Shown here: positions 1-48,792 of the stretch, one piece after another
How the letters are laid out: each line of letters begins with the position of its first letter
How positions within the stretch are numbered: position 1 is the stretch's first letter
Assembly (NCBI GenBank): GCA_963811105.1
Contig: CAWEPZ010000011.1
Location: 1,280,001-1,344,000, forward strand
Source of the DNA: Candidatus Bathyarchaeota archaeon
GTDB lineage: Archaea > Thermoproteota > Bathyarchaeia > Bathyarchaeales > Bathycorpusculaceae
Reading direction: 5' to 3'
Length of the DNA stretch: 64,000 bases
Program-made: the position numbers and the translations under genes
The notes under the pieces: model-generated
What the model saw: the letters and a program-made list of their open reading frames with translations, nothing else
Told to the model about the DNA's origin: nothing
The model's database searches: none

Positions 1-1092
1 CGTTCCATCGAAAAAGCCAGCTTTTCCTTCAGGTATAAGTTCCATTGAAAGTGAAAGCATCATTATGTAATACATTGCATAAACGAAGCCTATGCATACC
101 AAAAGAATGCAAGTTATGATTGTGGGTGCAATAGCAAGCGAAATAGCCGCAACCAAAGTGAAAACAAGAAGGCTTCGTAAAAGAATGAATCTGGGCATTT
201 GTTTTCTTATATCCATTGAGTTTGCTCGCTCACGAATCAAGAAGTAACCTGCTGTTGCACCAACAGAGTTGAGAATGTATGCCAAATACACAAATTGTTC
301 TTGTCCGCTAAAAACGTCTTTAAGATAAATTGGCAGAGGCGTAAAAAACAAGCTTGTGGCGAGAGCAAACAAAACTATTGCCAAAGCAAATCCTCGAAAG
401 CTGTCTTCTTTGAGGGAGCCATTCCAACGCAATCCGTCCATAAGTCTAGAAGAACCTTCAACCCCACGATGCATATTGTCCAGCTTCCTTTCTATGCCTA
501 CCAAGCGTCTTTCAAAAACTATCAATGGATCAGCTATGAGTGCTAATGCCAGAACGAATGCAACTACGCTTAAGGCGCTACAAAGATAGAAAGAATAGTT
601 TGACAAAACAGCAAAGCTGAGAGATGATGCAAACAAGAACATGCCTGCAGCTAAACCAATAATAAAACCAATTTCAGTAAGCCCCTCATAAAACCCGAAA
701 GATTTCTCCCAGTCATTGCGACTATAGTGCTCTGTTACAAGCACGTTTTTGGGTGATTCATGCGCCACATGTAGCATCTGCATAACAACATACAACGCAA
801 CAAAAACGATTAGATTCTGGGCAAACGGAAGTGTCATAAGGAAAAGAAACACAGCCATTGAGGCGAAAGAAAGAAGAATAAATGCTTTGTAGTGGCGTGT
901 TTTGTCGCAGAGGTATCCCCAAAGAAAAGAAGCAGGGATAGAGCAGAATATAGCTATGGAAGTCATAACACCTAAGGCAAGAAGGGGCCCACCTAAGATG
1001 TTGGTGTTATTGAAAACTACCACGTACAATGGTATGAAAACCGTTAGCAACCCGAACGCCATGTCGTGGAAGAAGAACCCTAGCCGCCACAT
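1..1092 (-). CDS. MFS transporter (3' end runs off the window)
   Basis: Manual translation from ATG at 1092: MWRLGFFFHDMAFGLLTVFIPLYVV...SFLWGYLCDKTRHYK; contains an MFS motif-A-like G-x-L-x-D-K/R and many hydrophobic helices. Confidence 0.8.
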   Translation of the reverse strand, partial: MWRLGFFFHDMAFGLLTVFIPLYVVVFNNTNILGGPLLALGVMTSIAIFCSIPASFLWGYLCDKTRHYKAFILLSFASMAVFLFLMTLPFAQNLIVFVALYVVMQMLHVAHESPKNVLVTEHYSRNDWEKSFGFYEGLTEIGFIIGLAAGMFLFASSLSFAVLSNYSFYLCSALSVVAFVLALALIADPLIVFERRLVGIERKLDNMHRGVEGSSRLMDGLRWNGSLKEDSFRGFALAIVLFALATSLFFTPLPIYLKDVFSGQEQFVYLAYILNSVGATAGYFLIRERANSMDIRKQMPRFILLRSLLVFTLVAAISLAIAPTIITCILLVCIGFVYAMYYIMMLSLSMELIPEGKAGFFDGT

Positions 1093-1238
1093 AGGCAAAG
1101 GAGCACTTCAAAGTTAAATTAAAACTTTTACCTGAATTATCTTAGTTTAGAAAAATGTGCATAGAACAGAATATTTTTCATAAATCCTTAATAGAGAGAG
1201 CAGCCAATTTCATTCTCCGCTGGAGAGTTAGTCAGCAA

Positions 1239-1634
1239 ATGGCAAAATTTAAAGTAATAGTTTCAGACCCAGAAGCAGGAACGTCTAAAGTTGTCGAGCT
1301 TGAAGAAGCACGCGCAGCCCCATTTATCGGTAGAAGACTTGGAGAAATAATAGACGGCACAGTGGTAGACTTACCAGCTCATAAAGTGCAAATATTGGGC
1401 GGTTCTGACAAAGACGGCGTTCCCATGAGGGGAAACGTTCACGGTGGTGTCCGCAGAAGGGTTGTGCTTAGTGGCGGAGCAGGCTTTAGCCCAAAGAAGA
1501 AGGGTGAAAGAAGACGCAAAACCGTGCGTGGGAGCACAATAACAGATGAGATTGCACAAATTAACATGAAAATCGTTGAAAAACCATTGGGCGTAAAAGC
1601 CCCTGAAGCTAAACCTCAACAACCCACGACATAA
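1239..1634 (+). CDS. rps6e: 30S ribosomal protein S6e
   Basis: MAKFKVIVSDP...GGSDKDGVPMR...GERRRKTVRG; start placed at the internal ATG. Confidence 0.97.
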   Translation: MAKFKVIVSDPEAGTSKVVELEEARAAPFIGRRLGEIIDGTVVDLPAHKVQILGGSDKDGVPMRGNVHGGVRRRVVLSGGAGFSPKKKGERRRKTVRGSTITDEIAQINMKIVEKPLGVKAPEAKPQQPTT

Positions 1635-1711
1635 GCACCAAGTTTGGCAGAGTTCATGCTTAAAACTTATAAACTGCCAAAGTTTATTCTTTCACAATTC
1701 ATCAGGTTTAT

Positions 1712-2971
1712 GTGAATAACATGAGTAGCACGAACAAAGCCTTGCCTAAGCAGCCAGAAGTCAATATTGGCACTATAGGTCACGTTGATCATGGAAAAAC
1801 AACCTTGGTGCAAGCATTAACCGGAGTCTGGGCATCGCGACATAGTGAGGAACTCAAAAGAGGCATCACCATAAAGCTTGGTTATGCAGACATGCCTATT
1901 TACAAATGCCCAAAATGTGAACCGCCAAAAAACTACACCATAAAGCCTTACTGTGAAACCTGCAATTCAGAGGCAGAATTTGTTCGAGCCATAAGTTTTG
2001 TCGACGCACCAGGTCACGAAGCATTAATGGCCACCATGCTTTCTGGCGCCGCTATTATGGACGGGGCAATACTAGTTATAGCAGCCGATGAACCGTGTCC
2101 TCAACCACAGACCCGGGAGCACCTTGCGGCTGCAGAAGTTAGCGGCATTAAGAATATTATTATTGTCCAGAACAAGATCGACATTGTCGATGGAAAAAGA
2201 GCTCAGGAAAGTTACAAGGAAATTAAGAACTTTATTAAGGGAACAGTTGCAGAAAAGGCACCAATTATTCCAATCTCAGCCCAGCGTGGAATAAACATTG
2301 ACATCTTGCTCACAGCTATTCAAACAATTATTCCGACACCCCAAAGGGACGAAACCAAGCCACCGCTAATGTACATTATACGTTCTTTTGACGTTAACAA
2401 GCCTGGAACCACCATTGAGAATCTTGAAGGCGGTATAATAGGCGGAACCATCGCTCAAGGAAAATTTGTTGTAGGAGAAGAAATAGAAATTCGCCCGGGC
2501 ATCAGCATCGAAAGAGAAGGCAAAACCGTTTACGACCCATTAATCACCGAAATAGTAAGTCTGAATGCTGGCGAACAAAGCGTCAAAGAAGCCACTTGTG
2601 GAGGATTGATTGGAGTTGGAACTTGTCTTGATCCTTCCTATTCAAAGGCAGACGGTTTAACAGGCAGCATCGCTGGAAAAGCAGGAATGCTTCCGCAAAC
2701 ATTAACAGAGCTAACTTTAGAAACACACGTTTTAGAGAGAGCCGTAGGAACAAAGGAGCTTTTAAAGGTTGAAAAATTCAATCCTGAAGAAGTTCTGTTG
2801 CTTCACGTAGGCGCTGCGGTTAACGTTGGAAAAATATTGGCAATAAAACAGAATGTGATTAAAGTTAAGTTGACTAGGCCAATTTGTGCAATGCCTGGTT
2901 CCAGAGTTGCCATCAGCAGAAAAATTACTGCCCGTTGGAGACTTATTGGGTATGGGCTAATAGTAAAATAA
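1712..2971 (+). CDS. eif2g: Translation initiation factor 2 gamma subunit
   Basis: GHVDHGKTT, RGITIKLGY, DAPGHE, QNKID and Zn-knuckle Cys pairs; the true start may be ATG 1721. Confidence 0.97.
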   Translation: MNNMSSTNKALPKQPEVNIGTIGHVDHGKTTLVQALTGVWASRHSEELKRGITIKLGYADMPIYKCPKCEPPKNYTIKPYCETCNSEAEFVRAISFVDAPGHEALMATMLSGAAIMDGAILVIAADEPCPQPQTREHLAAAEVSGIKNIIIVQNKIDIVDGKRAQESYKEIKNFIKGTVAEKAPIIPISAQRGINIDILLTAIQTIIPTPQRDETKPPLMYIIRSFDVNKPGTTIENLEGGIIGGTIAQGKFVVGEEIEIRPGISIEREGKTVYDPLITEIVSLNAGEQSVKEATCGGLIGVGTCLDPSYSKADGLTGSIAGKAGMLPQTLTELTLETHVLERAVGTKELLKVEKFNPEEVLLLHVGAAVNVGKILAIKQNVIKVKLTRPICAMPGSRVAISRKITARWRLIGYGLIVK

Positions 2972-2976
2972 GCAAC

Positions 2977-3414
2977 TTATTCTACGGGTTTTATTATTCC
3001 ATTTTTCTTTAGAAAATCTTGAGCTTTTTGAAGCGTATCCTTAGCATTTTTGAAAGTCAATTTTTCCATGGCGTGCTGATAGTCAAGCCAAATATAACCT
3101 ACGTGTTCAAAAGATAGCTCAACTTTGTTAGTGTTTGCTTCCATTAAGTAGAAAACGACTTCTTTGTGAACTTTTGAACCTTGCCTGCGGTAAAAATAAG
3201 TAATTGCTTCCCTAAAGCCATCTATAAATTTGGCATCGGTTATGCTTGTTTCCTCTTTTAGTTCCCTTACAACCGTTTCTTTTTCTTTTTCATTAGGTTC
3301 AACATTGCCCTTCACAAAATCCCAATGCCCCGCAGCATAGTTAAGAAGAAGATAGTTTGTCAAGTCACCTTTTTTTATGAATACTACTGCCCCGCAAGAT
3401 TTTTCATTAATCAT
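2977..3414 (-). CDS. NUDIX hydrolase (Ap4A hydrolase-like)
   Basis: HWDFVKGNVE...VRELKEET Nudix box, LSFEH. Confidence 0.9.
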   Translation of the reverse strand: MINEKSCGAVVFIKKGDLTNYLLLNYAAGHWDFVKGNVEPNEKEKETVVRELKEETSITDAKFIDGFREAITYFYRRQGSKVHKEVVFYLMEANTNKVELSFEHVGYIWLDYQHAMEKLTFKNAKDTLQKAQDFLKKNGIIKPVE

Positions 3415-28122: not shown

Positions 28123-28337
28123 ATATCACTACAAGCGTGATTCAGTTAAGGCTTTCCTAGTTTTGCTCCGAACCTAATTCTGCACTACTCTGAGTCTATT
28201 TCTAAACAACAAAGTTGCTTTCGCCATGCGTATCTTCCAGCTTTAGCAAGGCTTGACGCTGAAGTTGAAATACTGAAAATAGTTCTTGCATACGGACTTT
28301 CGCCCTAAATCAGGCTAGTAGCCTCTATTTCTCCTTC

Positions 28338-28520
28338 CTATTTTTTGGCAGGTGCTATATGATAGTTTTCGTATATTTCCGCTTGGGTAAGCCCGTAAAA
28401 CTCTGCGTATCCCTGCACGCGTGCTTTCTTGTTTTCAAGGCATTCAGGATTAATACAGATGTACTCGCCGCATACACCCTCTATTCGCTTAAGAATTTTA
28501 TCGCAAGCAGGACATTTCAT
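28338..28520 (-). CDS. Small Cys4 zinc-finger protein
   Basis: MKCPACDK...YICINPEC, 60 aa. Confidence 0.6.
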   Translation of the reverse strand: MKCPACDKILKRIEGVCGEYICINPECLENKKARVQGYAEFYGLTQAEIYENYHIAPAKK

Positions 28521-29066
28521 AATTACACCAAGGTTACTCCTATTCACAGTCATGTTGCCACGTCCATATATAGCAATTCACCAAAGTCATCGTCGGACCG
28601 TCACCATACCCGGGTGAAAACGCAGCCTAAAGCTGAAGAGCTTGCCCTACCTATTTTCCAGTGGTTTCTTGACTCTTGATGATTTTAGTTCTTAGACCCG
28701 ACCCCATTTCAGAGTGCATAAAACCTTGACTTTACAACAGAATTATGCTTGCGCTCAAATTCTTTTCTATCGGTTAGTCGCTATTTCTCACCTTTTTTCA
28801 TGCTTTCAGTACCCGTTCAATGATTGACATAACCAGTTTTCTAGGTAACTTACCCTTATCAAATAAGGGGCTATATGGACTACTTAGAATGTTTGTGATG
28901 ATTCTTTGTTACTTAGGAAAAACTGAAATGTTGATTGTGCATATTAGATAATCGGCGAGTTCTTAGTGAGTAAACCTAGACTTTTCAGCTTAGCACATGT
29001 GCACCTCGAAAGTTTAAGGTCGAAAGGAAAAATAAAAGATGAATTACAGATGGGGGAATAGAGGTT

Positions 29067-32612: not shown

Positions 32613-34781
32613 TTGAACGAAGTTCAGCTGAAAGTTCTGGATTCCAGACAGAGAGATGTGGCAAGAGGAATCGCCAGAATAGACCAGATAACAATGCAGA
32701 AGTTAGGAGTTTTATCTGGAGACGTAATAGAGTTCTCAGGGAAGAAAAAAACGTCGGCGAGCGCTTGGCCAGCGTACTCTGAAGACCAGGATCCAAACGT
32801 TATGCGAATCGATGGGGTCTTACGTAAAAATGCTGGCGTATCAATAAACGATTTCGTTGTAGTTCGCAAGGCTGACGTTAAAAATGCCCTGAGCATAGTG
32901 CTTGCTCCTGTGGATATGCAATTGAAAGTTGACGAAGACTTTGCAAATTTTGTGAAGAACAGACTTATAGATAGGACTTTTGTTGAGGGAGACAAGACGT
33001 CCGTTATGATGCTTGGTCATTCTGTTCAGTTCACTGTTGCGAAGATGCAGCCCCAAGGAATAGTAAAGATGACCAACGATACTATATTGCAGATATTAAC
33101 TGACCCCGTTGCTGAAGCTGAAAGTGTGCCACGTATCACCTATGAGGACTTAGGAGGTTTGGAGGAGGAGATTCAACGCATAAGGGAGATGGTTGAACTT
33201 CCAATGCGGCATCCCGAGATTTTCCAGAGGCTTGGAATAGATCCTCCGAAAGGGGTTCTACTGCTTGGTCCACCCGGCTGCGGAAAGACACTCCTAGCTA
33301 GAGCAGTAGCGAATGAGTCTGACGCAAACTTCTTCTCAATAAACGGGCCTGAGATAATAAGTAAGTTCTATGGGGAGTCGGAGGCGAAGCTTCGAGAAAT
33401 ATTTCAACAGGCTCATAAAAGCGCTCCGAGCATCATACTCATAGATGAGTTGGACTCCATCGCGCCCAAACGTGAGGAGGTTACTGGTGAAGTGGAGAAA
33501 AGGGTTGTCGCTCAGCTTCTATCTCTCATGGACGGATTGACTGGTAGAGGAAATGTCATAGTAATAGGTGCAACAAACAGACCGAATGCTTTGGATCCAG
33601 CTCTCAGGAGGCCTGGGCGGTTTGACCGCGAGATAGAGATAGGGACCCCGGACAAGCGGGGGCGTCATGAAATATTGTTGATTCATAGCAGAGGTATGCC
33701 CTTAGCCCGTGATGTTGAGTTAAAGGTGCTTGCTGAGCGGACGCACGGTTACACGGGTGCTGACTTGGCTGCCCTGTGTAGAGAGGCAGCTATGAAAGCT
33801 CTACTTAGGTATCTTCCCGAGATAAATCTGAAGGAAGAGCGAATACCTCCCTGCGTCCTGGAGAAGATGGATGTTCGAATAGATGATTTCATGAGCGCCT
33901 TCAAGGAGATTACACCTACAGCTATGAGGGAGATTGCTGTGGAAGTTCCGGTTGTTCATTGGGATGAAGTGGGAGGCTTGGAGGAGGTTAAAGAGAAGTT
34001 AAAGGAGGCTGTTGAGTGGCCGCTGAAAAATCCTGAAGTCTTCAAGAGATTGGGGATTCAGCCGCCTAAAGGTATACTGTTAATAGGCCCGCCTGGGTGT
34101 GGGAAGACAATGCTGGCTAGGGCTGTTGCAACTGAGAGCGAGGCAAACTTCATTTCGATTAAGAGTCCGGAGGTTTTCTCTAAGTGGGTTGGCGAGTCTG
34201 AAAAGGCTATTCGAGAGATTTTCAGGAAGGCTAGAATGGCTTCGCCAGCGGTCATATTCTTCGATGAAGTTGACTCTCTTGTTCCAAGGAGGGAGCAGGG
34301 TTACGGTGACAACGGAGTAACTGAACGCGTCATCAGCCAGCTTTTGACAGAAATGGATGGAATAATGCCCTTAGAAGACATCATAGTTATAGCTGCGACA
34401 AATAGGCCCGATATTGTCGACTCAGCCATATTAAGGCCAGGCAGATTCGATCGGCTAATTTATGTTCCAGAACCCGACGAAGCGGCCAGGCTTGAAATCT
34501 TTAAGATTCATACGAAGAATATGCCACTACAAAATCTTGTGGACATCAAGGCGTATCGCATGACGAAAGGTTACTCTGGCGCCGATATATCATCCGTTTG
34601 CAGGGAGGCCGCCATGAACGCTTTGAGAAGAGACAGCAACGCAAAAGAGGTTGCCTTCAGCGATTTTGAGAAAGCTATACACGAAGTTCCGCCGAGCATA
34701 TCGCCAGAAATTGAGATTTGGTATAGGAGTTTTATGAATCAGGTTCGAAGGCTGCAGAAGCCTGCGCCTTTTGTAGTGTAA
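32613..34781 (+). CDS. cdc48: Cdc48/VAT AAA ATPase
   Basis: N-domain plus two AAA modules (GPPGCGKT x2, IDELD/FDEVD, RPGRFDR x2). Confidence 0.96.
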
Positions 34782-35237
34782 TTCCGGAAGGGACAGATAA
34801 ACGTGAATTTACGCTGTGAGTCGATTCAGCTTTATTAGGGTCTTCCCAAAGAAAGAGTGCGATGAATGGTTCCCCCAAATTTGGAACGCAACAGGAACCC
34901 GCCAAACAGAGAACCAGGTCGAAAGGAGAATTGCTTACTTCTCCCAGGAAATCGTAATTCGATTCGTGATGTTCTTCATTAAAAGGCGATAAAGCATTAG
35001 AAAGTAATAACCATAAGAAAGTGTAACGAACCGTGTTTTATCGGCAAAGAAATGAAATAATGTGTAAAAAAAGTTTATTAGAGCTGTACAGGTTGTGTGT
35101 ACGGCTCTTAAAAATTGGAGACTGTTTTTCGAGTTGGATGATTCAACATCAGAGGAAATCAAAAGTTCGAGAAGATCCGCATTCGAAAAGCACATTCACA
35201 CATGAATATCGTTTCGTAATTAAACTAACGGGGATAA

Positions 35238-38200
35238 ATGACTTTGACTGAAATTTCAAAAGAAGATATACATTTGTTGTTAAAATCTTTCTTCCACGAG
35301 AAAGGACTAGTTAGACAGCATCTGGATTCTTATAACGAGTTTATCGATCATGGATTGCAGGAGGTGGTGGATGAGGTTGGCGAAATCAATATTGAAGTTC
35401 CTGAATGTCCGTACAAGGTGAAGCTTGGGCAGGTTTGGGTGATAGATCCTCAATCAAGGATAACAGGGCCATACGTGGTAGAAGTAGATGGCGGTAAACA
35501 CGAAATTTACCCCATGGAAGCTAGACTCAGGAACCTTGCATACGCCGTGCCAGTGGCGCTTGAAATGACGCCCATAATAGATGGGAGAGAACAGGACACC
35601 GAACTTGTCTACATCGGCAACATTCCAGTCATGCTGAAATCGAAACTTTGCTTCTTATCCCAGCTTTCAACGGAGGAACTTATTGCTGCTGGAGAAGACC
35701 CTGATGACCAAGGCGGATACTTTGTTGTTAACGGGTCTGAACGCGTTATCATTGCCATGGAGGATCTGGCACCTAATCGCGTACTTGTTGACATTGACGA
35801 GAAAGGAACCTCACCAGTTTTTCAAGCAAAAATTTTCTCAACCACAGTCGGCTTCAGGGCTAGAATCGAACTTAAACTCAAATCGGACGATGCCATCTAC
35901 GTCACCATGCCAGGATTACCAACAGAAATCCCGTTCGTTGTCATAATGCGTGCGTTAAGCTTAGAAAAAGACAAAGATATTGCAGAAGCGGTCTCACTTG
36001 ATAGCGAAATGCAAAGCCACTTGGCCGCTTCATTTGAAAAAGCCATCGGTGTAGACACACCCGCTGACGCAATCCTATTCATTGGTAACCGTGTAGCTCA
36101 CGGGCAGGTTGAAGAATACCGCTTACTGAAAGCTGAGACTGCCCTTGACAAAAATTTCCTGCCCCACCTTGGCAGAAGCGACGCGAACCGAAAGGAAAAA
36201 GCAATTTTCCTAGGCGAAATGGCATACAGAGTTATACAGTTGAAAACAGGTAGACGGCAACCTGATGATAAAGATCATTTCAAGAATAAACGTTTGCGTC
36301 TCGGAGGTCCGCTTCTTGCAGACCTTTTCCGTGTCTCATTTAGAAACTTGACGAGAGACATGAAATACCAGCTTGAACGGATAGGCGTTAAAGGTCCAAT
36401 CATTAATGTTTCAGCGGCTGTTCGCTCTGGCATTATAACAGAACGTTTTCAGCATGCGTTGGCAACGGGCAACTGGGGAAGAGGCAGAGTCGGCATCACT
36501 CAGCTTTTAGACAGAACCAACTTCATCTCTACCCTAAGCCACTTACGCAGGCTTCAGTCGCCCCTGAGCAGAAGCCAACCTAACTTTGAAGCCAGAGACT
36601 TGCACCCAACCCATTGGGGACGCTTATGCCCTAACGAGACGCCTGAAGGCTCCAATTGTGGCTTAGTCAAAAACCTAGCATTGTCAGCTTCCATAGCAGT
36701 CGGTGTAAACCCTGACAAAATTAAGCAATTACTTTTTGAAATGGGTGCTGTTCCGGCAGGTGAAGCCAGCCGTGATTTACGTATTTCGGGAGCCAAAGTT
36801 TTCTTGGACGGAAACATCATTGCCTATTGCAATAACCCAATAGAAATTGTGAAGTCTTTCCGGGAAAAAAGGCGAGCTGGAGAAATCTCAACGGAGGCAA
36901 ACGTAACATATTTCTCAAAAATGCAAACTGAAACCGAAGAAGTTCATGCTAACTGTGACGAAGGCAGGGTAAGACGCCCACTCATAATTGTTGAGAATGG
37001 CGCTTCAAAACTTCAATCTAAACATTTTGAAAAGATTGGTTTAGGCGAGTGGACGTGGGAAGACGTGGTTAAGAACGGTTTGATTGAGTATTTAGACGCT
37101 GAAGAAGAGGAAAACGCTTTCATCGCCTTAACCTTCGACAAAATTGAGCCTCAAAACACTCATGTTGAAATAGCTACTTACACGATTCTCGGCATATGCG
37201 CTTCAACAATCCCCTATCCAGAACACAACCAGTCGCCTCGTAACTCGTACCAAGCAGCTATGGCTAAGCAAGCGTTGGGCGTTTATTGCACCAACTTCCA
37301 TCACCGAGTTGATTCACGCTCGCACATACTCCACTACCCGCAAGTCCCAATGGTTGAAACGGAATTAATGGAAGTCATGGGCTACAAGCAACGTCCTACA
37401 GGACAAAATTGCGTCGTCGCGGTGCTCAGCTTCGAAGGCTATAACATGGAAGACGCTCTAATATTCAATAAAGCATCAGTAGATCGTGGCTTAGCCAGAT
37501 CCACATTCTACCGCATTTACGAAGCTGAATGCCGCCAGTATCTAGGCGGATTAAAAGACAAGTTTACCGTTCCAGAACCTGGAACCCGTGGTTACCGCGG
37601 CGAACAATATTACAGGCTTTTGGAACCTGATGGAATAATCAGTTTAGAATCGCAAGTGGTCGGCGGAGATGTTTTAATCGGAAGAATTAGCCCGCCCAGA
37701 TTTCTTGAAGAATATAAAGAATTTGAAGTTAAAGGTCCCTCGATGCGTGATACTTCAGTTGACATGCGTCCCTCAGAAACAGGCGTCGTCGACAAGATCT
37801 TCATAACTCAGTCTGGAGGAGGAAGCAAACTCGTAAAGGTAAGAATCCGCGATCAACGTGTTCCAGAGTTAGGCGACAAGTTTGCCTCTAGACACGGTCA
37901 AAAAGGAGTAATCGGTCTAATCGTACCGCAAGAAGATTTGCCCTTCACGGATGAAGGAATTGTACCTGACCTAATAATCAATCCACATGCCATCCCCTCA
38001 AGAATGACCATCGGTCAATTCATCGAGTCACTCGCTGGAAAAGCTGCTTCGGCGAGAGGTAAACCAGCAAATGGTACACCATTTTCCAACGAAGGACCCG
38101 ACGAAATACGCAAGAGCCTTGTAAAACTCGGCTTTAGTCACACTGGAGGCGAAGTCTTCTATAGCGGTACAACAGGCGAAAAATTCGTTGCAGATGTATT

Positions 38201-38609
38201 CGTCGGCGTAGTTTACTACCAGAAACTTCACCACATGGTTGCGGACAAGATTCACGCAAGAGCCAGAGGTCAAGTACAGATGTTAACACGGCAACCAACT
38301 GAAGGCAGAGCTAGAGGTGGCGGTCTCAGGTTCGGAGAAATGGAGCGAGATTGCCTAATTGGACACGGCGCAGCCATGCTGCTCAGCGACAGAATGCTGG
38401 AAGAGTCAGACAAGTACACGCTTTACATCTGCGAGAACTGTGGGGAAATAGCCTACTATGATATGAAACAGAGGCGGTATGTGTGTAAAATCTGCGACGA
38501 AAAAGCCAAAGTTTCCCCAGTAATCGTCTCTTACGCTTTTAAGCTTCTGTTGCAGGAGCTCAAGAGTCTGTGTATAACTCCCAAATTAAGACTAAAGGAG
38601 AAGGCATAA
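35238..38609 (+). CDS. rpoB: RNA polymerase subunit B (Rpo2), full length
   Basis: QHLDSYN, ETPEGSNCGL, GYNMEDA, GDKFASRHGQKG, NPHAIPSRMT, KLHHMVADK, RFGEMERD, C-terminal Zn Cys4. Confidence 0.98.
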   Translation: MTLTEISKEDIHLLLKSFFHEKGLVRQHLDSYNEFIDHGLQEVVDEVGEINIEVPECPYKVKLGQVWVIDPQSRITGPYVVEVDGGKHEIYPMEARLRNLAYAVPVALEMTPIIDGREQDTELVYIGNIPVMLKSKLCFLSQLSTEELIAAGEDPDDQGGYFVVNGSERVIIAMEDLAPNRVLVDIDEKGTSPVFQAKIFSTTVGFRARIELKLKSDDAIYVTMPGLPTEIPFVVIMRALSLEKDKDIAEAVSLDSEMQSHLAASFEKAIGVDTPADAILFIGNRVAHGQVEEYRLLKAETALDKNFLPHLGRSDANRKEKAIFLGEMAYRVIQLKTGRRQPDDKDHFKNKRLRLGGPLLADLFRVSFRNLTRDMKYQLERIGVKGPIINVSAAVRSGIITERFQHALATGNWGRGRVGITQLLDRTNFISTLSHLRRLQSPLSRSQPNFEARDLHPTHWGRLCPNETPEGSNCGLVKNLALSASIAVGVNPDKIKQLLFEMGAVPAGEASRDLRISGAKVFLDGNIIAYCNNPIEIVKSFREKRRAGEISTEANVTYFSKMQTETEEVHANCDEGRVRRPLIIVENGASKLQSKHFEKIGLGEWTWEDVVKNGLIEYLDAEEEENAFIALTFDKIEPQNTHVEIATYTILGICASTIPYPEHNQSPRNSYQAAMAKQALGVYCTNFHHRVDSRSHILHYPQVPMVETELMEVMGYKQRPTGQNCVVAVLSFEGYNMEDALIFNKASVDRGLARSTFYRIYEAECRQYLGGLKDKFTVPEPGTRGYRGEQYYRLLEPDGIISLESQVVGGDVLIGRISPPRFLEEYKEFEVKGPSMRDTSVDMRPSETGVVDKIFITQSGGGSKLVKVRIRDQRVPELGDKFASRHGQKGVIGLIVPQEDLPFTDEGIVPDLIINPHAIPSRMTIGQFIESLAGKAASARGKPANGTPFSNEGPDEIRKSLVKLGFSHTGGEVFYSGTTGEKFVADVFVGVVYYQKLHHMVADKIHARARGQVQMLTRQPTEGRARGGGLRFGEMERDCLIGHGAAMLLSDRMLEESDKYTLYICENCGEIAYYDMKQRRYVCKICDEKAKVSPVIVSYAFKLLLQELKSLCITPKLRLKEKA

Positions 38610-38610
38610 A

Positions 38611-38715
38611 ATGGCTATAGATGAGATAACCCAGAGCTTTTGACGAAATCTCATTCGGTCTGATTTCATCGTAGACCTCCGCAAACAATCAGTCGTGGAA
38701 ATCCTAACACCCGAT
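38611..38715 (+). pseudogene. rpoA1: RNA polymerase subunit A' (Rpo1N) N-terminal stub
   Basis: Reads MAIDEITQ/AFDEISFGLIS/VDLRKQSVVEILTPD with two frameshifts; sits in the canonical position 1 bp after rpoB, then truncates. Confidence 0.8.
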
Positions 38716-38883
38716 AGGAGTATATTGCGCTTCCCCAAAAAAAGCGTTTGGGCCTGTCGTGGTTCTTAAAATTTGAGGTATCAGGAAAAACAAAAAGTGT
38801 CAAAAACTTGTTTTTCAGGCATTTAGAGGCCCAAAACACTTGGCGCCTTAATGTTTGCCTATTGCGTGTTTCGCAAAGTATTC

Positions 38884-39171
38884 CTACTCTTTTGTAAGCA
38901 TTATTTCAATTGTTGAAACCATTCGTGCTCTGGTTTCGCCTTCTCTTGGCGGCATCTCCTCTGTTCCTATCACGATTTTATGTACTTTCAGGTCTTTTAG
39001 GAATCGATTTCTCGTTATTTCAGCTGCGTCAACAGCTGTAGTTATTGATTTTCCTCTGGCCTTTAAGGTTATATCTTTAGCATCGCTCGCCGACAAGCCT
39101 GTAATAATCGCCAAAACATAGTCCATCGGCATCTTATTTCCAACGAAAACAATTCTTGATTTTTCCGACAT
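38884..39171 (-). CDS. albA: Alba DNA/RNA-binding protein
   Basis: VFVGNKMPMDYVLA, LKARGKSITTAVDAAE, VSTIEI. Confidence 0.93.
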   Translation of the reverse strand: MSEKSRIVFVGNKMPMDYVLAIITGLSASDAKDITLKARGKSITTAVDAAEITRNRFLKDLKVHKIVIGTEEMPPREGETRARMVSTIEIMLTKE

Positions 39172-39741
39172 TTTCCATCACCATTTAATCATAACGTTAC
39201 TGCCCTATACTACGCAACTGCCCTATAAAGCGATTAAACAACAGAGCAGTCTGAAGATGTTTCAGTGTGGCTCCCTTATCCCAAAAGGTCGCCAGCCCGA
39301 AACTGGTCCGACTTGCACTGGACACTGAACGTTTGCCCAACATGTTTTTCGATGTTTTCTTGACTGTGAACGATTTTCGAGCTGATGGTTTACAAGGATT
39401 TAATTAGACTAATGGAGCCGTTTCCAAAGATGACGTCCGCGTTTTGAAGTTAGGCTGCTCTTGATAGGGGATTTGCTTAATATTTTAAACACATCCCAAT
39501 AGAATAGTAAAAACAGAATAAAAACAAAAGAAGGTTATTTTGACAGTGAAAATTTAACCGACTAAGCGGTTATGCCTGTGATTTCACAGATTGAGGTGGG
39601 TCTGCGTATTTTTGGTGTGAGGATTTCCCATACTTTGCCTTTGGTATTCATGTCTTCATCTATGAAGTTGTTGACGGATACTTCTTGCTCGATTATTAAT
39701 CGTGCACGTTTTGTTAGCTTTTCTAAATATTGGTGTGTTCT

Positions 39742-39998: not shown

Positions 39999-40112
39999 AG
40001 GTTGAAGGCGAAAATATATGGAAAACTCTCCAAAATCCAAGCCACAGTAAACAATCTATAGAGCAAAGTTTCGTAGTAAAGCATTAAATATGACTAGAGA
40101 TAATCACAGGTT

Positions 40113-40220
40113 ATGACTGTTCTGGGTAGCAAGTGTTTCTGTGGAGGAAACGCTAATGTTTTCGAGGGCGGCGAGCAGTTCTGTAACGACTGTTACCTGA
40201 AGAAGAAGGGCAGACGTTAA
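40113..40220 (+). CDS. 35-aa Cys4 microprotein
   Basis: MTVLGSKCFCGGNANVFEGGEQFCNDCYLKKKGRR*. Confidence 0.55.
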   Translation: MTVLGSKCFCGGNANVFEGGEQFCNDCYLKKKGRR

Positions 40221-40275
40221 ACAACTTTGAATTTCTTAGGGCGTTCATCATACAGATTAGTTGGAGATAGAATTA

Positions 40276-40404
40276 ATGTCTAAAGAATTTGTAAAAGATT
40301 GTCCTTGTCCTTACTGTGGAAGTAGCAACATTGAAAACACAGACAAAGAAATAAAATGTCTTGATTGTGGAATGGGTAAATATAAAGTTGGCAAAGGTAA
40401 ATAA
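40276..40404 (+). CDS. 42-aa zinc-ribbon microprotein (TFB-ribbon-like)
   Basis: CPYCGSSNIENTDKEIKCLDCG; GGAG upstream. Confidence 0.6.
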   Translation: MSKEFVKDCPCPYCGSSNIENTDKEIKCLDCGMGKYKVGKGK

Positions 40405-42962: not shown

Positions 42963-45500
42963 TTATGGTCGTTTTCTTAGTATCAGCACAATGACTGCAC
43001 CTATGATTAGGACTGCAATTATTATGGCGATTACTCCGGCTATGATTGTCATTGTGTAATCAGGTACTGCTTGCGCTTGGGTTGGCGTTTGTGTTGGTTG
43101 TGCATTTGCCACGACTGCTGCTGTTTCTGCCCATGAACTGCCGTATCCGCCGTTGCCTGCAAAGGTTGCTGTAATCTGGTAAGTTCCTGCGATTGTTGGG
43201 GTCCAAGTGTAGTGGAATGTTCCGCTGATGTCGCTTGTTGTGTCTCCGAGGTGTTGTGGGTTTCCGTTAGGGTCAGTTGCATCGATTGATACTGGTACAC
43301 CTGTGATTGTTATGTTGTGGTATATTCCGTCAATCGGGTGCTGCATATGCAAATATTCCATGTATGTGCCCATTGAATCGTCAGAAACGCATGCTTTACC
43401 CATCTGTGCTGGAGATTGGTCTAAGACTGTTCCAGAAATAATAGCGTTTGTACCAGCTGTTACTTGTGTTTGTGGAGCTGAAACAGAGGTAGCGCTTTCT
43501 CCTTTACCGAAAACGTACATGTACCCGTCATAACTATTGGACGCAGTCAAATAGCCATCTGCAACTGCACCTGGAGTCATGGGTCCAGTTATATTCCATA
43601 TGCCTTCGCCTGTAGTAGCGTTAATGCAATGTAGTTTCCAACCTCTTGTAATTGGCTCAGTTGGTGTGTGCTCAGTGTTGTATGTGTATACTTTTCCGTC
43701 AGCAACGAGGGTTGAGCCGTAGAAGGAATAAACCGTTGAACCGCTTGCATCAATGTATGGAGTTTCGTACGGGTTTGCTGGAGCTTCGTACTTCCAAATT
43801 ATTTTTCCTGTATCCCAATCGAAAGCATAGACACCGGAGTATGCTGCACGGAATATCATACCATAGGCTGAGGCTATATCATAAGCTCCAAAACCGGGTG
43901 CATCCCAAGGATAATCCATTCTGTCACTTACCCAAGCTACTGTTCCAGTTTGTGCATTCCAAGCATGAAAACGTCCGTCATCCATTAACACGGCAACTTT
44001 TCCATGATCAGCAACGTCTGAGCCTGCATTAAACATAACTAATCCTGCAACGTAATTATCCCACAACTGCGTACCTGTTGTCAAGCTAGCGGCTCTTACG
44101 CGTGTGCCATTGTATGAAGTCCCTTGCCCTCCTGCTCTAACCCATGATACGTCAACGCATACGTCTGATTGGAAGTCTTGTAAGCCGTTGCCAAATCCAA
44201 GGTTTGCCCATGGCCACGTTATGTTATTCATTATTCTCGAATTAAAGTCAGTGCTTGTCCCAAGCGTAGTCCAGTTGATCAAACGGTAGTTGTTTGCAGT
44301 AGCGTTTACGGTCTGTAAAGTCAATGCGTATCCGTTCCTGTAGTAAGTTCCAGAAGTCAGCACACCAGTTGAGACGTTGGCAGTAACTGCACCTGTGTAT
44401 GGATTATATTTTATCAGTCTTCCATTACTAATCGCTAAGAGACTCACGGAAGCGCCAGCATTGCCTGTGTTATCTGTAGCTACATATTCAATCGCTGTAG
44501 GTGCTATAACATCGGTTAAATCCCAATAAACCTGTCCAGTTCTTAGATCGTAGCATTCCCAAACGGTTGTTGGCAATGTTCGATAAGTCCCATTAAGCAA
44601 CGTTAACATTGGTTTCGTTAGAGTCTGGTAACATCGACCATCAAAGATTATGTTTGGCGTACCGCCACCACTGCTTAAAGAGACAATTCCTTGGTCACCG
44701 CCTATGAGTCCGGCAATGGCACCTTGACGTTTCCAGAGTATATGTGCAGAATCTGGCGCTTGAACCCATGGAACAAAGCCATAACTGTCGCTAAAATAGG
44801 GGTTTGTGTTAGGATAGAGTGCATCCCATTGTGGGCCTCCTCCGCTTGGTCCGTGCCATGGATAGTTTCCTGAGATTGGCCACCACTCTCGGTTTTCTGG
44901 TGAAATTGGTCTTGTCCAGTAATCAGTAGGCAAAGGAGCAACAGGCCATGACGCGATTAGATTCTCCTGAACAGTCAGATTTTGTTCTGCAGTTGAAGCA
45001 GGGGTAAAGTAATGCGAGACTGGATAAACTGTGCCTGATGTGTTAGTTACTAGATAGCCATTGAAGTATCTCCCCGCTGGGAAATATACGCCGGGAAAGT
45101 CAAATTTAAGCTTCCATGTGCCAACTTGGTCTGGATTGAACTCAAACCAATAGGTTCCGTCATTAACTTGAGAATTTACGGGTCCAATGGTTTGTTTGGT
45201 TCCGTCAGGTTTTGTGATTGTCACCACGTAACCTAGTTGCATTCGATCTTGTGCTGGCGGAGTAGTTGTCCATATGTTGACAAGGACGACTTGTTTCAGT
45301 CCTATAGGATTTGGTCTAAAACTGAGGTAGGCGCTTGGAGTGTAGGTTTCAGTTGCGGCAACTCCTGTTGGTAGCGGTCCTGCGGTGGGTTGTTGGGCAG
45401 CAATCTGAGCGTTGACAGGTTGAAATGAAAATAGTAATGAGGGCGAAATCATTAGCAGTATTATCAGTGTTGCATTTGTTATGATTTTCATTTTTTTCAT
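42963..45500 (-). CDS. Surface PQQ-like beta-propeller repeat protein
   Basis: Signal peptide, LPTDYWTRPI, W-repeat blades, VADGKVY, C-terminal TM helix plus basic tail. Confidence 0.88.
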   Translation of the reverse strand: MKKMKIITNATLIILLMISPSLLFSFQPVNAQIAAQQPTAGPLPTGVAATETYTPSAYLSFRPNPIGLKQVVLVNIWTTTPPAQDRMQLGYVVTITKPDGTKQTIGPVNSQVNDGTYWFEFNPDQVGTWKLKFDFPGVYFPAGRYFNGYLVTNTSGTVYPVSHYFTPASTAEQNLTVQENLIASWPVAPLPTDYWTRPISPENREWWPISGNYPWHGPSGGGPQWDALYPNTNPYFSDSYGFVPWVQAPDSAHILWKRQGAIAGLIGGDQGIVSLSSGGGTPNIIFDGRCYQTLTKPMLTLLNGTYRTLPTTVWECYDLRTGQVYWDLTDVIAPTAIEYVATDNTGNAGASVSLLAISNGRLIKYNPYTGAVTANVSTGVLTSGTYYRNGYALTLQTVNATANNYRLINWTTLGTSTDFNSRIMNNITWPWANLGFGNGLQDFQSDVCVDVSWVRAGGQGTSYNGTRVRAASLTTGTQLWDNYVAGLVMFNAGSDVADHGKVAVLMDDGRFHAWNAQTGTVAWVSDRMDYPWDAPGFGAYDIASAYGMIFRAAYSGVYAFDWDTGKIIWKYEAPANPYETPYIDASGSTVYSFYGSTLVADGKVYTYNTEHTPTEPITRGWKLHCINATTGEGIWNITGPMTPGAVADGYLTASNSYDGYMYVFGKGESATSVSAPQTQVTAGTNAIISGTVLDQSPAQMGKACVSDDSMGTYMEYLHMQHPIDGIYHNITITGVPVSIDATDPNGNPQHLGDTTSDISGTFHYTWTPTIAGTYQITATFAGNGGYGSSWAETAAVVANAQPTQTPTQAQAVPDYTMTIIAGVIAIIIAVLIIGAVIVLILRKRP

Positions 45501-46179: not shown

Positions 46180-48792
46180 ATGAAAATTAAATTTTCAGCA
46201 AATCTAAAAACGACTACAGCGATCGCTATTATACTAATGTTTTCTATGCTAATATCAACATTATCCGTTCAGTCGGTTAATGCTCAAACTACATATACAA
46301 ATTTGCAAGACGGCTCTTCCATGCCGTTACCCACCGGCGTGACAGCCGATGAAACAGTCACCACAAGCGCACATCTAAGCTATAGGCCTAATCCTGTAGG
46401 ACTCAATCAACCTATCCTAGTAAATCTTTGGATGCAACCGCCAATTCACGTAACTCACTACTTTAAGAACGCATTCATGGTGACATTCACAAAACCAGAT
46501 GGAACCACAGAGCAAGTCGGTCCATTATCTTCGTACCAAGGCGACTCAACAGCTTGGTTTGAAAAGAAAATGGATCAAATGGGCACATGGACCATAAAGT
46601 TTGACTTCCTAGGTGCATACTTCCCCGCAGGTAATTATACAATCGTTGCTGGTACTTTTTCAGGTCAAGGCGGTGTTAGTACAAATGCAGTATTCCCAAA
46701 TTCAATTTACTATGCCCCTAGTTCAGATGGCCCATACAACATCACCGTCCAACAAGACTTGATAGCCTCTTGGCCAACGGCACCACTACCAACCGACTAT
46801 TGGACAAGACCTATAGAACCACAAAACAGAGAATGGTGGCCAATCGCAGGTAACTATCCAGCAACTGGCATACTTGGAGGAGGCACTGATTGGCCAGCGG
46901 ACACAAATACTTACATGAGTAACTATGGATTCATCCCTTACGTTCAAGCGCCTAACACAGCACACATAGTATGGAAGCGACAAGGAGCTACAGCCGGTTT
47001 AATCGGTGGCGAAGCAGGGCAATACAGTATAACTACTGGTCCAGGAACCCCAAGCCTGGTCTATGCTGGAAGAGCATATCAAACGCTCACAAAAATCCTA
47101 AACGGAGTACAAACAAGCGTTTGGGAATGCTACGATTTGCGTACAGGCGAAGTTTACTGGGACCAAACAGGAGTCACTCAAGTACCCACATTCATTGGAT
47201 ATGATCCTCAAGCATTGAGTACCACTATAGCAGGAGCTGAGGCATCTTCATCTTGGGTTGCAAGTCTTGTCTTTGTCGGCAGCGGAAGGCTAATCAAATA
47301 CAACCCATGGATTGGCAGCGCAACACTGAACATCTCAATCGCTCCATTAACAACAGCTACACCATATGCTTACCCAAACTTCTTAAGCATTCAGAATATC
47401 GGTAGTACTGCAAGTCCAAACTACCGCTTAATTACTTGGACAGTAGCAACCGGCGGACTTTCAACAACCCCCATAGTACAATTCACAAGCAACGTCTCCT
47501 ACCCATTCGCAAGCATAGGCACTGCAGACTACGAATCGATGATAGCCGTTACAACACAAGGTATACGCGACATTCCCGCATCTGGACAAGTCGCTTCTTG
47601 GGAACCAACAGCAGCCGTCAACTCAGGAGTATCCTATAGCTACCGCATAATAGGAGTTAGCCTCTCAACCGGGCAAGTGCAGTTCAATGTCACAACCAAT
47701 CAGGCATACGGAGGAGTTTTCAGCGGAAGCACCGCAGTAGCTGACCATGGAAAATTCGCCCTCAGAATGAACGATGGACATTGGCATGCTTGGGACTTAC
47801 ACACAGGAAACGAGTTATGGACAAGTGAGATGTCTAGTTGGCCATGGGGTTCTTTTGGGATTTATGGCGTGACTTCATACGGCGGTCTTATTATTTATCC
47901 ACAGTACGACGGAGTTGTAGCATATAACTGGACTAACGGAAAAGTAGCTTGGCGATACCAATACGAAACCCCATATCCTTACGAAACTCCATATGAAGGC
48001 AACTATCCTTTCTATAGCTCCGCGGTTGACATTGCCGATGGAAAGCTCTATACATCCAATACTGAACACACACCAAGTAACCCCATTACTAGAGGATGGA
48101 AACTACATTGCATGAACGTAACTACAGGCGAAGGCATATGGAATATCACAGGTTCTTTCAGTGCAGGCGCTGTTGCTGACGGCTACTTAACCGCTTCTGA
48201 TGGCTATGATGGCTACATGTATGTTTTCGGCAAAGGACTCAGTTCAACTACAGTCTCAGCACCGCAGAATCAAATAATTGCAGGACAGAATGCCGTCATA
48301 TCGGGAACCGTGTTAGATCAATCTCCAGCACAGACGGGCAAAGCATGCGTTTCAGACAGTTCAATGGCTACATGGATGGAATACCTACATATGCAAATGC
48401 CAATAGACGGATTATCCCACAAAGTAATCATTACTGGTGTTCCAGTTTCAATCGATGCAGTTGACCCTAACGGAAATACAATACACCTTGCAACAGTTAC
48501 AAGCGATGTAAGTGGAACATTTGCTTATACATGGACACCAAGCCTAGCAGGCGACTGGAGAATTACTGCAACTTTCGCAGGAAGCGGCTCTTACGGCAGC
48601 TCATACGCAGAAGCGCATGCAAACGTTGTAAACGCACCTACAACAACAGTAACGCCAACCACAATAAGTTCAGCATCAGTAACCTCAACAGACGTAATGA
48701 CCTACATCGTCATAGCTGCAATCGCCATCATAATTGCTGTAGCAATAGTTGGCGCACTAATCATAAGGACTATCGCAAGAAAGCATTCATAA
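46180..48792 (+). CDS. Surface PQQ-like beta-propeller repeat protein (paralog)
   Basis: Same architecture and shared blocks (LPTDYWTRPI, NTEHTP..PITRGWKLHC, GYMYVFGKG, MEYLHMQ). Confidence 0.88.
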   Translation: MKIKFSANLKTTTAIAIILMFSMLISTLSVQSVNAQTTYTNLQDGSSMPLPTGVTADETVTTSAHLSYRPNPVGLNQPILVNLWMQPPIHVTHYFKNAFMVTFTKPDGTTEQVGPLSSYQGDSTAWFEKKMDQMGTWTIKFDFLGAYFPAGNYTIVAGTFSGQGGVSTNAVFPNSIYYAPSSDGPYNITVQQDLIASWPTAPLPTDYWTRPIEPQNREWWPIAGNYPATGILGGGTDWPADTNTYMSNYGFIPYVQAPNTAHIVWKRQGATAGLIGGEAGQYSITTGPGTPSLVYAGRAYQTLTKILNGVQTSVWECYDLRTGEVYWDQTGVTQVPTFIGYDPQALSTTIAGAEASSSWVASLVFVGSGRLIKYNPWIGSATLNISIAPLTTATPYAYPNFLSIQNIGSTASPNYRLITWTVATGGLSTTPIVQFTSNVSYPFASIGTADYESMIAVTTQGIRDIPASGQVASWEPTAAVNSGVSYSYRIIGVSLSTGQVQFNVTTNQAYGGVFSGSTAVADHGKFALRMNDGHWHAWDLHTGNELWTSEMSSWPWGSFGIYGVTSYGGLIIYPQYDGVVAYNWTNGKVAWRYQYETPYPYETPYEGNYPFYSSAVDIADGKLYTSNTEHTPSNPITRGWKLHCMNVTTGEGIWNITGSFSAGAVADGYLTASDGYDGYMYVFGKGLSSTTVSAPQNQIIAGQNAVISGTVLDQSPAQTGKACVSDSSMATWMEYLHMQMPIDGLSHKVIITGVPVSIDAVDPNGNTIHLATVTSDVSGTFAYTWTPSLAGDWRITATFAGSGSYGSSYAEAHANVVNAPTTTVTPTTISSASVTSTDVMTYIVIAAIAIIIAVAIVGALIIRTIARKHS

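Follow-up and report, generated by a model that had tools for sequence, protein, structure and literature searches.

The stretch analysed in this study (the window) comprises 64,000 nucleotides (nt) from a Candidatus Bathyarchaeota archaeon, corresponding to positions 1280001-1344000 of contig C11 in a genome (G000) of 3.49 Mb and 15 contigs. At 35238-38609 of the window, on the forward strand, lies rpoB2, an intact gene for a paralog of subunit B (Rpo2) of RNA polymerase (RNAP), as defined by its open reading frame (ORF), Pfam matches and alignment; copies of this type are called orphan copies below. The product of 1123 amino acids (aa) was matched end to end by seven Rpb2 Pfam families (PF04563, PF04561, PF04565, PF04566, PF04567, PF00562 and PF04560; E 5e-140 for PF00562), with complete profile coverage except for PF04567 (positions 1-35 of 66), and the protrusion, lobe, fork, external 1 and 2, hybrid-binding/wall and anchor/clamp domains were all present. 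Residues 2-1122 were aligned by phmmer with solved archaeal Rpo2 chains (E = 0). In the protein alignment, the stretches GDKFASRHGQKG, NMEDA and PSRMT, which we take to be RpoB motifs that presumably include catalytic residues, were identical to those of the genome's canonical RpoB, and all four cysteines of the Zn-ribbon CxxC...CxxC were present as in that protein. The seven domains, the motifs and the cysteines confirmed an earlier note on this DNA, which had described an intact 1123-aa RpoB with its motifs kept. Judged by its sequence, rpoB2 can be placed in the Rpb2 / RNA polymerase subunit B family; its location outside the rpoB-rpoA operon, which is found on contig C1, departs from the gene context of the family and leaves the membership unaffected.

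The two RpoB copies of the genome were clearly distinct, with 93% aa and 82% nt identity, and the near-identity that the earlier note had wished to see checked was ruled out. Profile searches of G000 gave two Rpb2_6 matches and one Rpb1_2 match, so the idea that only one rpoB exists in a split operon could be dismissed. The canonical gene order on C1 is methylase - rpoB (1122 aa) - rpoA (1277 aa) - L30e - NusA, and with this sole Rpb1_2 match the prediction of a functional rpoA elsewhere, beside its own rpoB, held. In many archaea rpoA is split into A' and A''. The rpoA of G000 (L004:11173-15006) is one unsplit gene of 1277 aa with all five Rpb1 domains. A single rpoH match was found at 429.6 kb of C11, linked to neither rpoB copy. 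Thus, of the rpoH-B-A'-A'' operon that had been anticipated, rpoB-rpoA was recovered on C1, but rpoH was unlinked and rpoA unsplit; similarly, the lack of rpoH upstream of rpoB2 was real but not peculiar to it, because canonical rpoB also has no rpoH nearby. Contigs C1 and C11 belong to the same organism: their tetranucleotide correlation was 0.988, and identity with the nearest species (G124) was 93-97% for C1 and 92% for a core region of C11.

Structure of the duplicated segment

By blastn, DNA homology between the rpoB2 locus and C1 was confined to window positions 35255-38714 and a 59-nt patch in a methylase remnant (34849-34907, 77% identical to the C1 methylase). The left end of the duplicated segment is this remnant, a decayed fragment, at 34782-35015 (forward strand, tblastn and blastn), of the N6/N4 DNA methylase gene located upstream of canonical rpoB. 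In the window, methylase residues 210-258 were recognized at 34840-34983 with 53-55% identity and one frameshift. In five of the seven orphan loci found in the genus (see below), tblastn placed methylase residues 187-264 between cdc48 and rpoB2, and fragments of other loci contained two in-frame stops.

Between the methylase fragment and rpoB2, alignment with the upstream region of canonical rpoB revealed a co-duplicated promoter and leader of about 160 nt (35066-35237, forward strand). A TATA-like motif, AAGTTTATTAG (TTTATTA at 35074-35080), lies about 160 nt ahead of the rpoB2 start, and a GGGGAT Shine-Dalgarno-like motif precedes the ATG. Across 17 canonical and six orphan leaders, 42 alignment columns were invariant, including the TATA-like motif, and a role of region 35066-35237 as a promoter is predicted from these motifs. 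RNAalifold yielded only a weak 8-bp stem in the leader (-3.2 kcal/mol; TTCAARTT/AAGTTTGA). The rpoB leader (window 35066-35237; L004:7627-7801) was strongly conserved across species in which the synonymous sites of the coding region are saturated, and it may have a regulatory role in the rpoB-rpoA operon.

The right end of the segment is an rpoA stub at 38611-38710 (forward strand), which holds roughly the first 33 of the 36 codons with rpoA homology (rpoA codons 1-36) and has two frameshifts in G000. The TAA of rpoB2 ends at 38609; the ATG at 38611 starts MAIDEITQSF followed by a stop, the +1 frame gives FDEISFGLISS followed by a stop, and the first frame resumes at VDLRKQSVVEILTPD. A frameshifted rpoA' stub of about 35 codons, 1 bp behind the gene, had been described in the earlier note; the stub and its frameshifts are as stated, but since rpoA is unsplit, the fragment must be assigned to the 5' end of rpoA instead of rpoA'. 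The rpoA homology stops at about 38710, within a short stretch of microhomology to a conserved native element beside alba, and the last few bases of the stub overlap this junction microhomology; the previously proposed end at 38715 was correct to a few bases.

The insertion target was this native non-coding element at 38711-38890 (no strand assigned), located 3' of alba and recognized through empty sites in five genomes (G420, G307, G308, G311 and G020), where the element adjoins alba and neither rpoB2 nor the stub is present. TBP or other unrelated sequence occupied the far side of the element in G420, G307, G308 and G311, and TBP and alba lay on one side of it in G020. The element of about 180 nt, which includes an inverted repeat (A-rich/T-rich), opens with CCGATAGG..ATATTGCGCTTCGCAAAA; it was kept beside alba in at least four genera (g1, g21, g58 and g59), and only its first ~40 nt remained in G264 (g41) and G505 (g63). 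In an Rfam scan of 34700-39300 nothing scored above the gathering threshold, and no family was found for the element.

Two genes frame the segment. Upstream, at 32613-34781 on the forward strand, is an accessory paralog of a Cdc48-type AAA ATPase (Pfam CDC48_N, CDC48_2 and two AAA matches), one of three Cdc48 genes in G000; Pfam matches to a Vps4-like ATPase and TBP were also found on this side. Downstream, an Alba-family chromatin protein gene (38884-39171, reverse strand, PF01918) is convergent with rpoB2; alba was syntenic in G095, G100 and G130 and near the orphan copy in G264. Concerning signs of mobile elements, the window lacks tRNA genes. Of its 63 ORFs with 100 aa or more, 31 were scanned, and none belonged to an integrase or transposase family.

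Distribution and age of the orphan loci

The genus survey covered 120 genomes, 110 of them with any rpoB match. Orphan-type copies occurred in six of the 120 at seven loci (G000, G095, G099, G100, G130 and two loci in G074), and two further carriers were recognized outside the genus, so that the survey of metagenome-assembled genomes for two rpoB copies, proposed in the earlier note, gave a positive answer. In G264 (genus g41), N-terminus, leader, stub (with ACG for ATG) and junction of the orphan copy all agree with those of the genus; in G505 (g63), a partial copy cut by the contig start has the same stub and junction. At each of the seven genus loci, rpoB2 is preceded by cdc48 and followed by the rpoA stub; the methylase fragment is retained at five, and six have a leader homologous to the canonical rpoB leader with the TATA-like AAGTTTATTAG. 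Downstream alba was found at four loci (G095, G100, G130 and the C96 locus of G074), with the window itself as the fifth. The stub is dead at every locus, through lesions that differed among loci, with a 2-bp deletion in G095 and an ATG-to-ATT change plus a 40-bp insert in the remaining ones, but its end point was the same base in all seven loci and also in G264 and G505. Since the same architecture and stub end point recur in G264 and G505, and empty sites exist, these data showed that the rpoB2 loci of three genera in one Bathyarchaeia family have one origin.

Across the class, 371 genomes with a completeness of at least 90% were surveyed, and seven had two Rpb2_6 matches, five of which were the orphan carriers G000, G095, G099, G100 and G264. 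G293 was rejected as a carrier, as one gene is split over two contigs there, and so was G153, in which the second rpoB is followed by a long rpoA and genome contamination is 10%. G153, from another Bathyarchaeia family, has two rpoB-rpoA pairs on C78 and C28 (L180, L182), with one rpoB frameshifted; these probably represent two strains or a contaminant and not a paralog. The junction pattern was matched by 14 of 332 genomes of the family, a number that also includes the native empty site and hence is not a count of rpoB2 carriers, and in metagenome contigs it was found in only two short contigs.

These surveys bear on whether the locus is an artefact of assembly or binning, either a chimeric contig or a canonical operon derived from a contaminant. 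The assembly does consist of 15 contigs with an estimated contamination of 4.3%, and the canonical operon sits on a separate 115-kb contig. However, identical junctions were recovered in independent assemblies, at seven loci of six genomes and in the two metagenome contigs, both copies stand on one contig in three genomes (G095, G099 and G264), the genome has only one rpoA, and composition and distance to G124 are alike for C1 and the remainder of the genome. We therefore regard an artefact as extremely improbable, and the chimeric contig that the earlier note had named as a danger is contradicted by the shared junctions.

The age of the locus within the genus was approached through synonymous divergence (dS). 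Over nt 1-450 of the gene, dS among the genus orphan copies was 0.04-0.27, compared with 1.57-1.72 for canonical copies (two pairs, G000 with G003 and G000 with G100); over the whole gene, the canonical copies of four carrier genomes differed by dS of 0.99-1.46. Among genus orphan loci, the stubs were 0-19% different and the leaders 1-10%, the C96 locus of G074, with its replaced leader, being left out. Because the orphan loci are far less diverged than the canonical genes, these results showed a recent spread of the rpoB2 locus between species of the genus, after these had split. Divergence from the G264 copy is saturated, and the paralog as such is therefore old. The cdc48 paralog copy, 91-96% identical in nt, was found in 19 of the 120 genus genomes, the others having only a core copy of ~68% identity. 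The canonical rpoB genes of these 19 species are only ~83-86% identical, and the ~68% core cdc48 is present in all species. This suggests that the TBP-cdc48-alba neighbourhood as a whole has recently spread between species.

Gene conversion, selection and loss

The orphan copies are mosaic. A paralog-specific 5' segment at 35238-35660 (forward strand), covering about codons 1-140 and the first part of the protrusion domain, has not been homogenised with canonical rpoB. In sliding windows, nt 1 to ~420 were 92-98% identical among orphan copies and 69-78% identical to any canonical copy, with saturated dS against the latter, and a switch occurred at about nt 400-450. In the remainder of rpoB2, the canonical genes of G004, G003, G046 and G095 (87-93%) were as close as other orphan copies.

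Phylogenetic analysis was performed with 50 rows (seven orphan, 40 canonical of the genus and three outgroups; the partial or broken G022, G005 and G023 were left out). In the whole-gene tree, the orphan clade (100/100) was nested near G003/G046/G078, a placement that mirrors only the converted part and was set aside as an indication of origin. For nt 1-450, all 40 canonical rows together formed the sister group of the orphan clade (97/96 and 99/97), but the approximately unbiased (AU) test on a 39-row subset did not reject a nested position (p 0.39) and the tree with G264 added was unstable with long-branch problems, so that a deep origin of the 5' segment is only a possibility. For nt 1501-2550, orphan monophyly was rejected (AU p 4.6e-5), and the two copies of G095 were sisters (Shimodaira-Hasegawa-like approximate likelihood ratio test 99) and 93-99% identical over about nt 1200-3075. 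In G000, a probable conversion tract with the genome's own canonical rpoB was located at 38088-38387 (forward strand; coding nt 2851-3150), where identity was 89-95% to the own canonical copy and 83-85% to other orphan copies, and where nt 2929-2984 formed an uninterrupted identical stretch of 56 nt. A larger conversion, from G000-like canonical rpoB into the 3' third of the copies in G000 and the first G074 locus, was suggested by the tree of nt 2551-3369 but not supported by the AU test, in which the constrained tree was better; only the short tract was retained. A donor of the 5' segment was sought in all fetched loci and 5.8 billion proteins, and none was closer than ~78% nt or 92% aa. From these results, it was shown that rpoB2 is overwritten by episodic conversion from canonical rpoB everywhere except in its first ~420 nt; some 2.9 kb are thereby refreshed.

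Selection was assessed mainly in the part that conversion has spared. In the orphan clade, a parsimony-like count over nt 1-450 gave at least 35 synonymous and 22 non-synonymous changes, i.e., a ratio of non-synonymous (dN) to synonymous divergence (omega) of about 0.175 (binomial p 1.3e-10 vs omega = 1), compared with 104 and 22 changes and an omega of 0.058 in seven chosen canonical rows (Fisher p 0.0028 vs orphan). None of the seven genus orphan copies has a stop in the reference frame, and the unconverted segment has neither stop nor indel in any of them. The orphan and canonical copies of G264 form an older pair, with dN 0.062, dS 1.92, omega 0.032, 20% nt difference and no stop in 1100 codons; polarised by other rows, 72 of their changes fell on the orphan side (31 at near-invariant sites) and 19 on the canonical side, with 19 ambiguous. 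Private residues numbered eight in the G000 orphan copy and eight and nine in the two G074 loci, compared with 0-4 in canonical rows. Omega was below 1 in every measurement, without a burst on the orphan stem. Whole-gene omega within the orphan clade (0.031-0.058, 21 pairs) was set aside as an argument for selection, as nt 451-3369 are affected by conversion. The rpoB2 protein was thus shown to be under purifying but relaxed selection, about 3-4 times less constrained than its canonical counterpart. With its open frame and an omega well below 1, rpoB2 has the sequence signature of a functional gene, and neutral evolution, which the earlier note had asked to be checked by dN/dS, is ruled out both in nt 1-450 and in G264. 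In contrast, that note's own argument, an open frame of 3.4 kb beside 105 bp of decayed rpoA, has lost weight: conversion refreshes most of the frame, and stub and leader are about as diverged as the unconverted synonymous sites.

Considering these data, rpoB2 is probably a real, long-lived accessory B paralog, a functional but dispensable spare or alternative subunit. Several observations weigh against this reading. The omega of nt 1-450 comes from 57 counted changes, and conversion imports canonical sequence, so that the low omega of nt 451-3369 in the genus (0.045-0.053) is not independent evidence. The copy in G505 has at least two in-frame stops, the C96 locus of G074 has ATA for ATG and a replaced leader, and the copies of G099, G100 and G264 have a 1-nt insertion each; the latter are probable assembly errors, because canonical rpoB is also broken in many assemblies of few contigs. 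A search for RNA sequencing runs for positions 35000-38800 listed none, a result that counts neither for nor against expression. Loss was surveyed in the sequence downstream of cdc48 in 13 of the 19 cdc48-paralog genomes, all without rpoB2, and in nine of the 13 blastn continuity with the orphan loci extended beyond the cdc48 stop. Four of them (G123, G047, G049 and G093) retain 82-161 nt of methylase-like sequence with four different end points, and G049 has in addition ~92 nt from the 3' end of rpoB2, together with stub and alba; in the other five of the nine, ~60-66 nt are retained, whose methylase origin is uncertain, and as these remnants are ambiguous, only at least four independent deletions were counted. 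It was thus shown that rpoB2 is dispensable and repeatedly lost by deletion.

The same facts raise the question of whether rpoB2 is a non-functional relic, a pseudogene-in-waiting kept open by its recent arrival and by conversion repair. The demonstrated conversion tracts, the recent spread within the genus, the frequent deletions, the broken G505 copy and the lost start codon at the G074 C96 locus are all in line with this. It would, however, leave unexplained the omega and the stop- and indel-free frame of the unconverted segment in seven copies, and conversion cannot account for the open, constrained and strongly diverged copy of G264; promoter and leader motifs are also invariant on the deep orphan branch. 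We consider a relic quite improbable.

Possible role of rpoB2 and comparison with known systems

Of 74 amino acid differences between the two RpoB proteins of G000, 17 fall in residues 1-150. Within the genus, 12 positions split all orphan from all canonical copies, and all these changes are conservative. Five marker states (T81A, A104V, I183L, A393V and a changed P397) are common to the genus orphans and the G264 orphan and depart from both the canonical majority and the G264 canonical copy. T81A and the changed P397 were present in eight of eight orphan copies from two genera and I183L in six of eight, at sites that are invariant in 43-44 canonical rows; at the shared A104V and A393V sites, 40 and 41 of 43 canonical rows keep the majority residue. 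All five residues are in the protrusion or lobe (domain names of residues being taken from Pfam domains), and P397 lies within the converted region. The orphan-derived changes of G264 numbered zero in the fork and 3.5 per 100 residues in the hybrid-binding/wall domain.

On the reading of rpoB2 as an accessory B subunit, we have proposed a plausible course of events. One illegitimate-recombination event would have copied the 3' part of the methylase gene, the rpoB promoter and leader, rpoB and the first 36 rpoA codons, and the copied segment would have been inserted between TBP/cdc48 and alba. With its own TATA-like promoter, leader and ribosome-binding site, rpoB2 may be expressed without rpoA. 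Its product, with all catalytic and Zn-binding elements, and canonical RpoB would be in competition for the only RpoA and for the assembly platform, and the outcome might be a second polymerase isoform that differs at a handful of protrusion and lobe residues. The constraint on rpoB2 may come at least partly from the poisoning of polymerase assembly by a defective subunit, and deletion of the whole gene would cost little; a B subunit that is redundant, or useful under certain conditions, would be the simplest account. Expression from its own promoter and assembly of the product with the single RpoA are thus predicted from sequence, a second, exchangeable Rpo2 is plausible, and a distinct role of rpoB2 is possible.

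A stronger proposal is that of a specialised second polymerase, an isoform for other promoters or factors, for a stress state or for resistance to an inhibitor, acting through the protrusion and lobe residues. Homogenisation has spared the leader and the first ~420 nt, T81A and the changed P397 persist in all eight orphans even though P397 is inside the converted region, rpoB2 has its own predicted promoter, and the G264 copy has persisted for long (dS 1.92). On the other hand, the substitutions are conservative (I/V, T/A, S/A and Q/K) and away from the fork and hybrid-binding regions, and the orphan marker states E5, S7, S17, A103 and V106 are ordinary in other Bathyarchaeia RpoB proteins. 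Omega below 1 throughout, the lack of a stem burst, the frequent loss and one decayed copy do not favour specialisation either, and the unconverted 5' end could simply reflect too little homology. This proposal was therefore judged rather unlikely. We are similarly doubtful of its extended form, in which two RNAP isoforms would share RpoA and swap Rpo2. The orphan form, with its own promoter and leader and a protrusion/lobe surface that includes the five marker states, would have a conditional role, for instance another interplay with TBP/TFB/TFE/Spt5 paralogs or protection from an inhibitor by which a virus or competitor targets the polymerase, as an accessory trait passed between species. 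The second exchangeable polymerase of the earlier note can accordingly be upheld only in part: a second Rpo2 is under constraint and an exchangeable form is plausible, but the suggested specialisation finds few, conservative differences and relaxed, not positive, selection.

Like the canonical archaeal Rpo2 of Pyrococcus furiosus (8CRO), Saccharolobus (2WAQ) and Thermococcus (4QIW), rpoB2 encodes a full-length subunit with seven domains in an unsplit gene. Unlike these, it is followed by a dead 36-codon stub, stands outside the rpoB-rpoA-L30e-NusA operon, occurs in few genomes only, carries paralog-specific residues at invariant sites and has a protein evolving ~3-4 times faster.

In actinomycetes, the second rpoB is reportedly altered in the part that binds rifamycins and influences secondary metabolism. 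The actinomycete pairs (rpoB(S)/rpoB(R) of Nonomuraea gerenzanensis and rpoB2 of Nocardia) combine two rpoB genes with one partner large subunit, as was also found here in G000 and, on one contig, in G095, G099 and G264. Such pairs imply two polymerase forms, whose significance has been called obscure (PMC5431353). In contrast to these bacterial pairs, rpoB2 has an archaeal host and an unchanged catalytic neighbourhood, and is a mosaic kept similar by gene conversion. Duplication of an Rpb2-type subunit also underlies polymerase diversification in eukaryotes, and Rpa2, Rpb2, Rpc2 and plant NRPD2 (Pol IV/V) were all matched by the rpoB2 query. The eukaryotic second-largest-subunit paralogs are ancient and deeply diverged, each paired with its own largest subunit. 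Here, by contrast, there is one RpoA, the copies are 90-93% identical, and a division of labour would be hypothetical.

Within the archaea, lineage-specific paralogs of the basal machinery are represented by those of TBP and TFB and by TFS4, a polymerase inhibitor, which likewise are additions to a common apparatus but are factors and not catalytic subunits. TBP/TFB and TFS paralogs have been described (PMC7289017), and archaea are held to transcribe all genes with a single RNAP (PMC7289017; PMC13257274); the available text of these two papers mentions no Rpo2 duplicate. Our literature search for rpoB paralogs returned bacteria (actinomycetes) only, and a description of an archaeal case elsewhere is possible, supplements having been outside the search.

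Known diversity of archaeal transcription thus lies in factors and not in catalytic subunits, and two isoforms, if true, would make this the first case in Archaea of an RNAP with a heterogeneous catalytic subunit. A constrained second Rpo2 at dS ~1.9 from its partner offers a natural experiment on how polymerase subunit paralogy begins. The stage seen here, with one duplicated subunit, an unduplicated partner, conversion that holds most of the protein close to its counterpart and a short part that can diverge, is presumed to have preceded eukaryotic polymerase diversification. In addition, rpoB serves as a single-copy marker, and carrier genomes would score as contaminated or be misplaced. The importance of rpoB2 should not be overstated, as it is rare, often deleted and little diverged, and its hosts are uncultured.

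Some further features of the window and genome were recorded. With 3.49 Mb, G000 ranks with the largest assemblies of the genus (one other, G048, is listed at a rounded 3.5 Mb), and its paralog counts include three TBP, three Cdc48, two Vps4-like, five Alba and six thermosome subunit genes. Between alba and a DUF2299 gene, at 40100-40400, two tiny ORFs with paired CxxC (Zn-ribbon-like) lie in an ORF-poor region of low GC (0.37); a Pfam scan of the ORF at 40261-40404 gave no match, the other small ORF near 40115-40220 being outside the scan. A stretch of ~270 bp at 28325-28593, overlapping a 106-aa ORF without a Pfam match, recurs with 84-94% identity in varied position and orientation near alba or cdc48 in G095, G098, G089, G110, G123, G101 and G264, and may be a small mobile or recombinogenic element. 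Two proteins of ~850 aa with PQQ-like beta-propeller and Ig domains are encoded at 42963-45500 and 46180-48792; their family has roughly 70 full-length paralogs genome-wide, about 29-61% identical, and probably represents a very large expansion of surface proteins.

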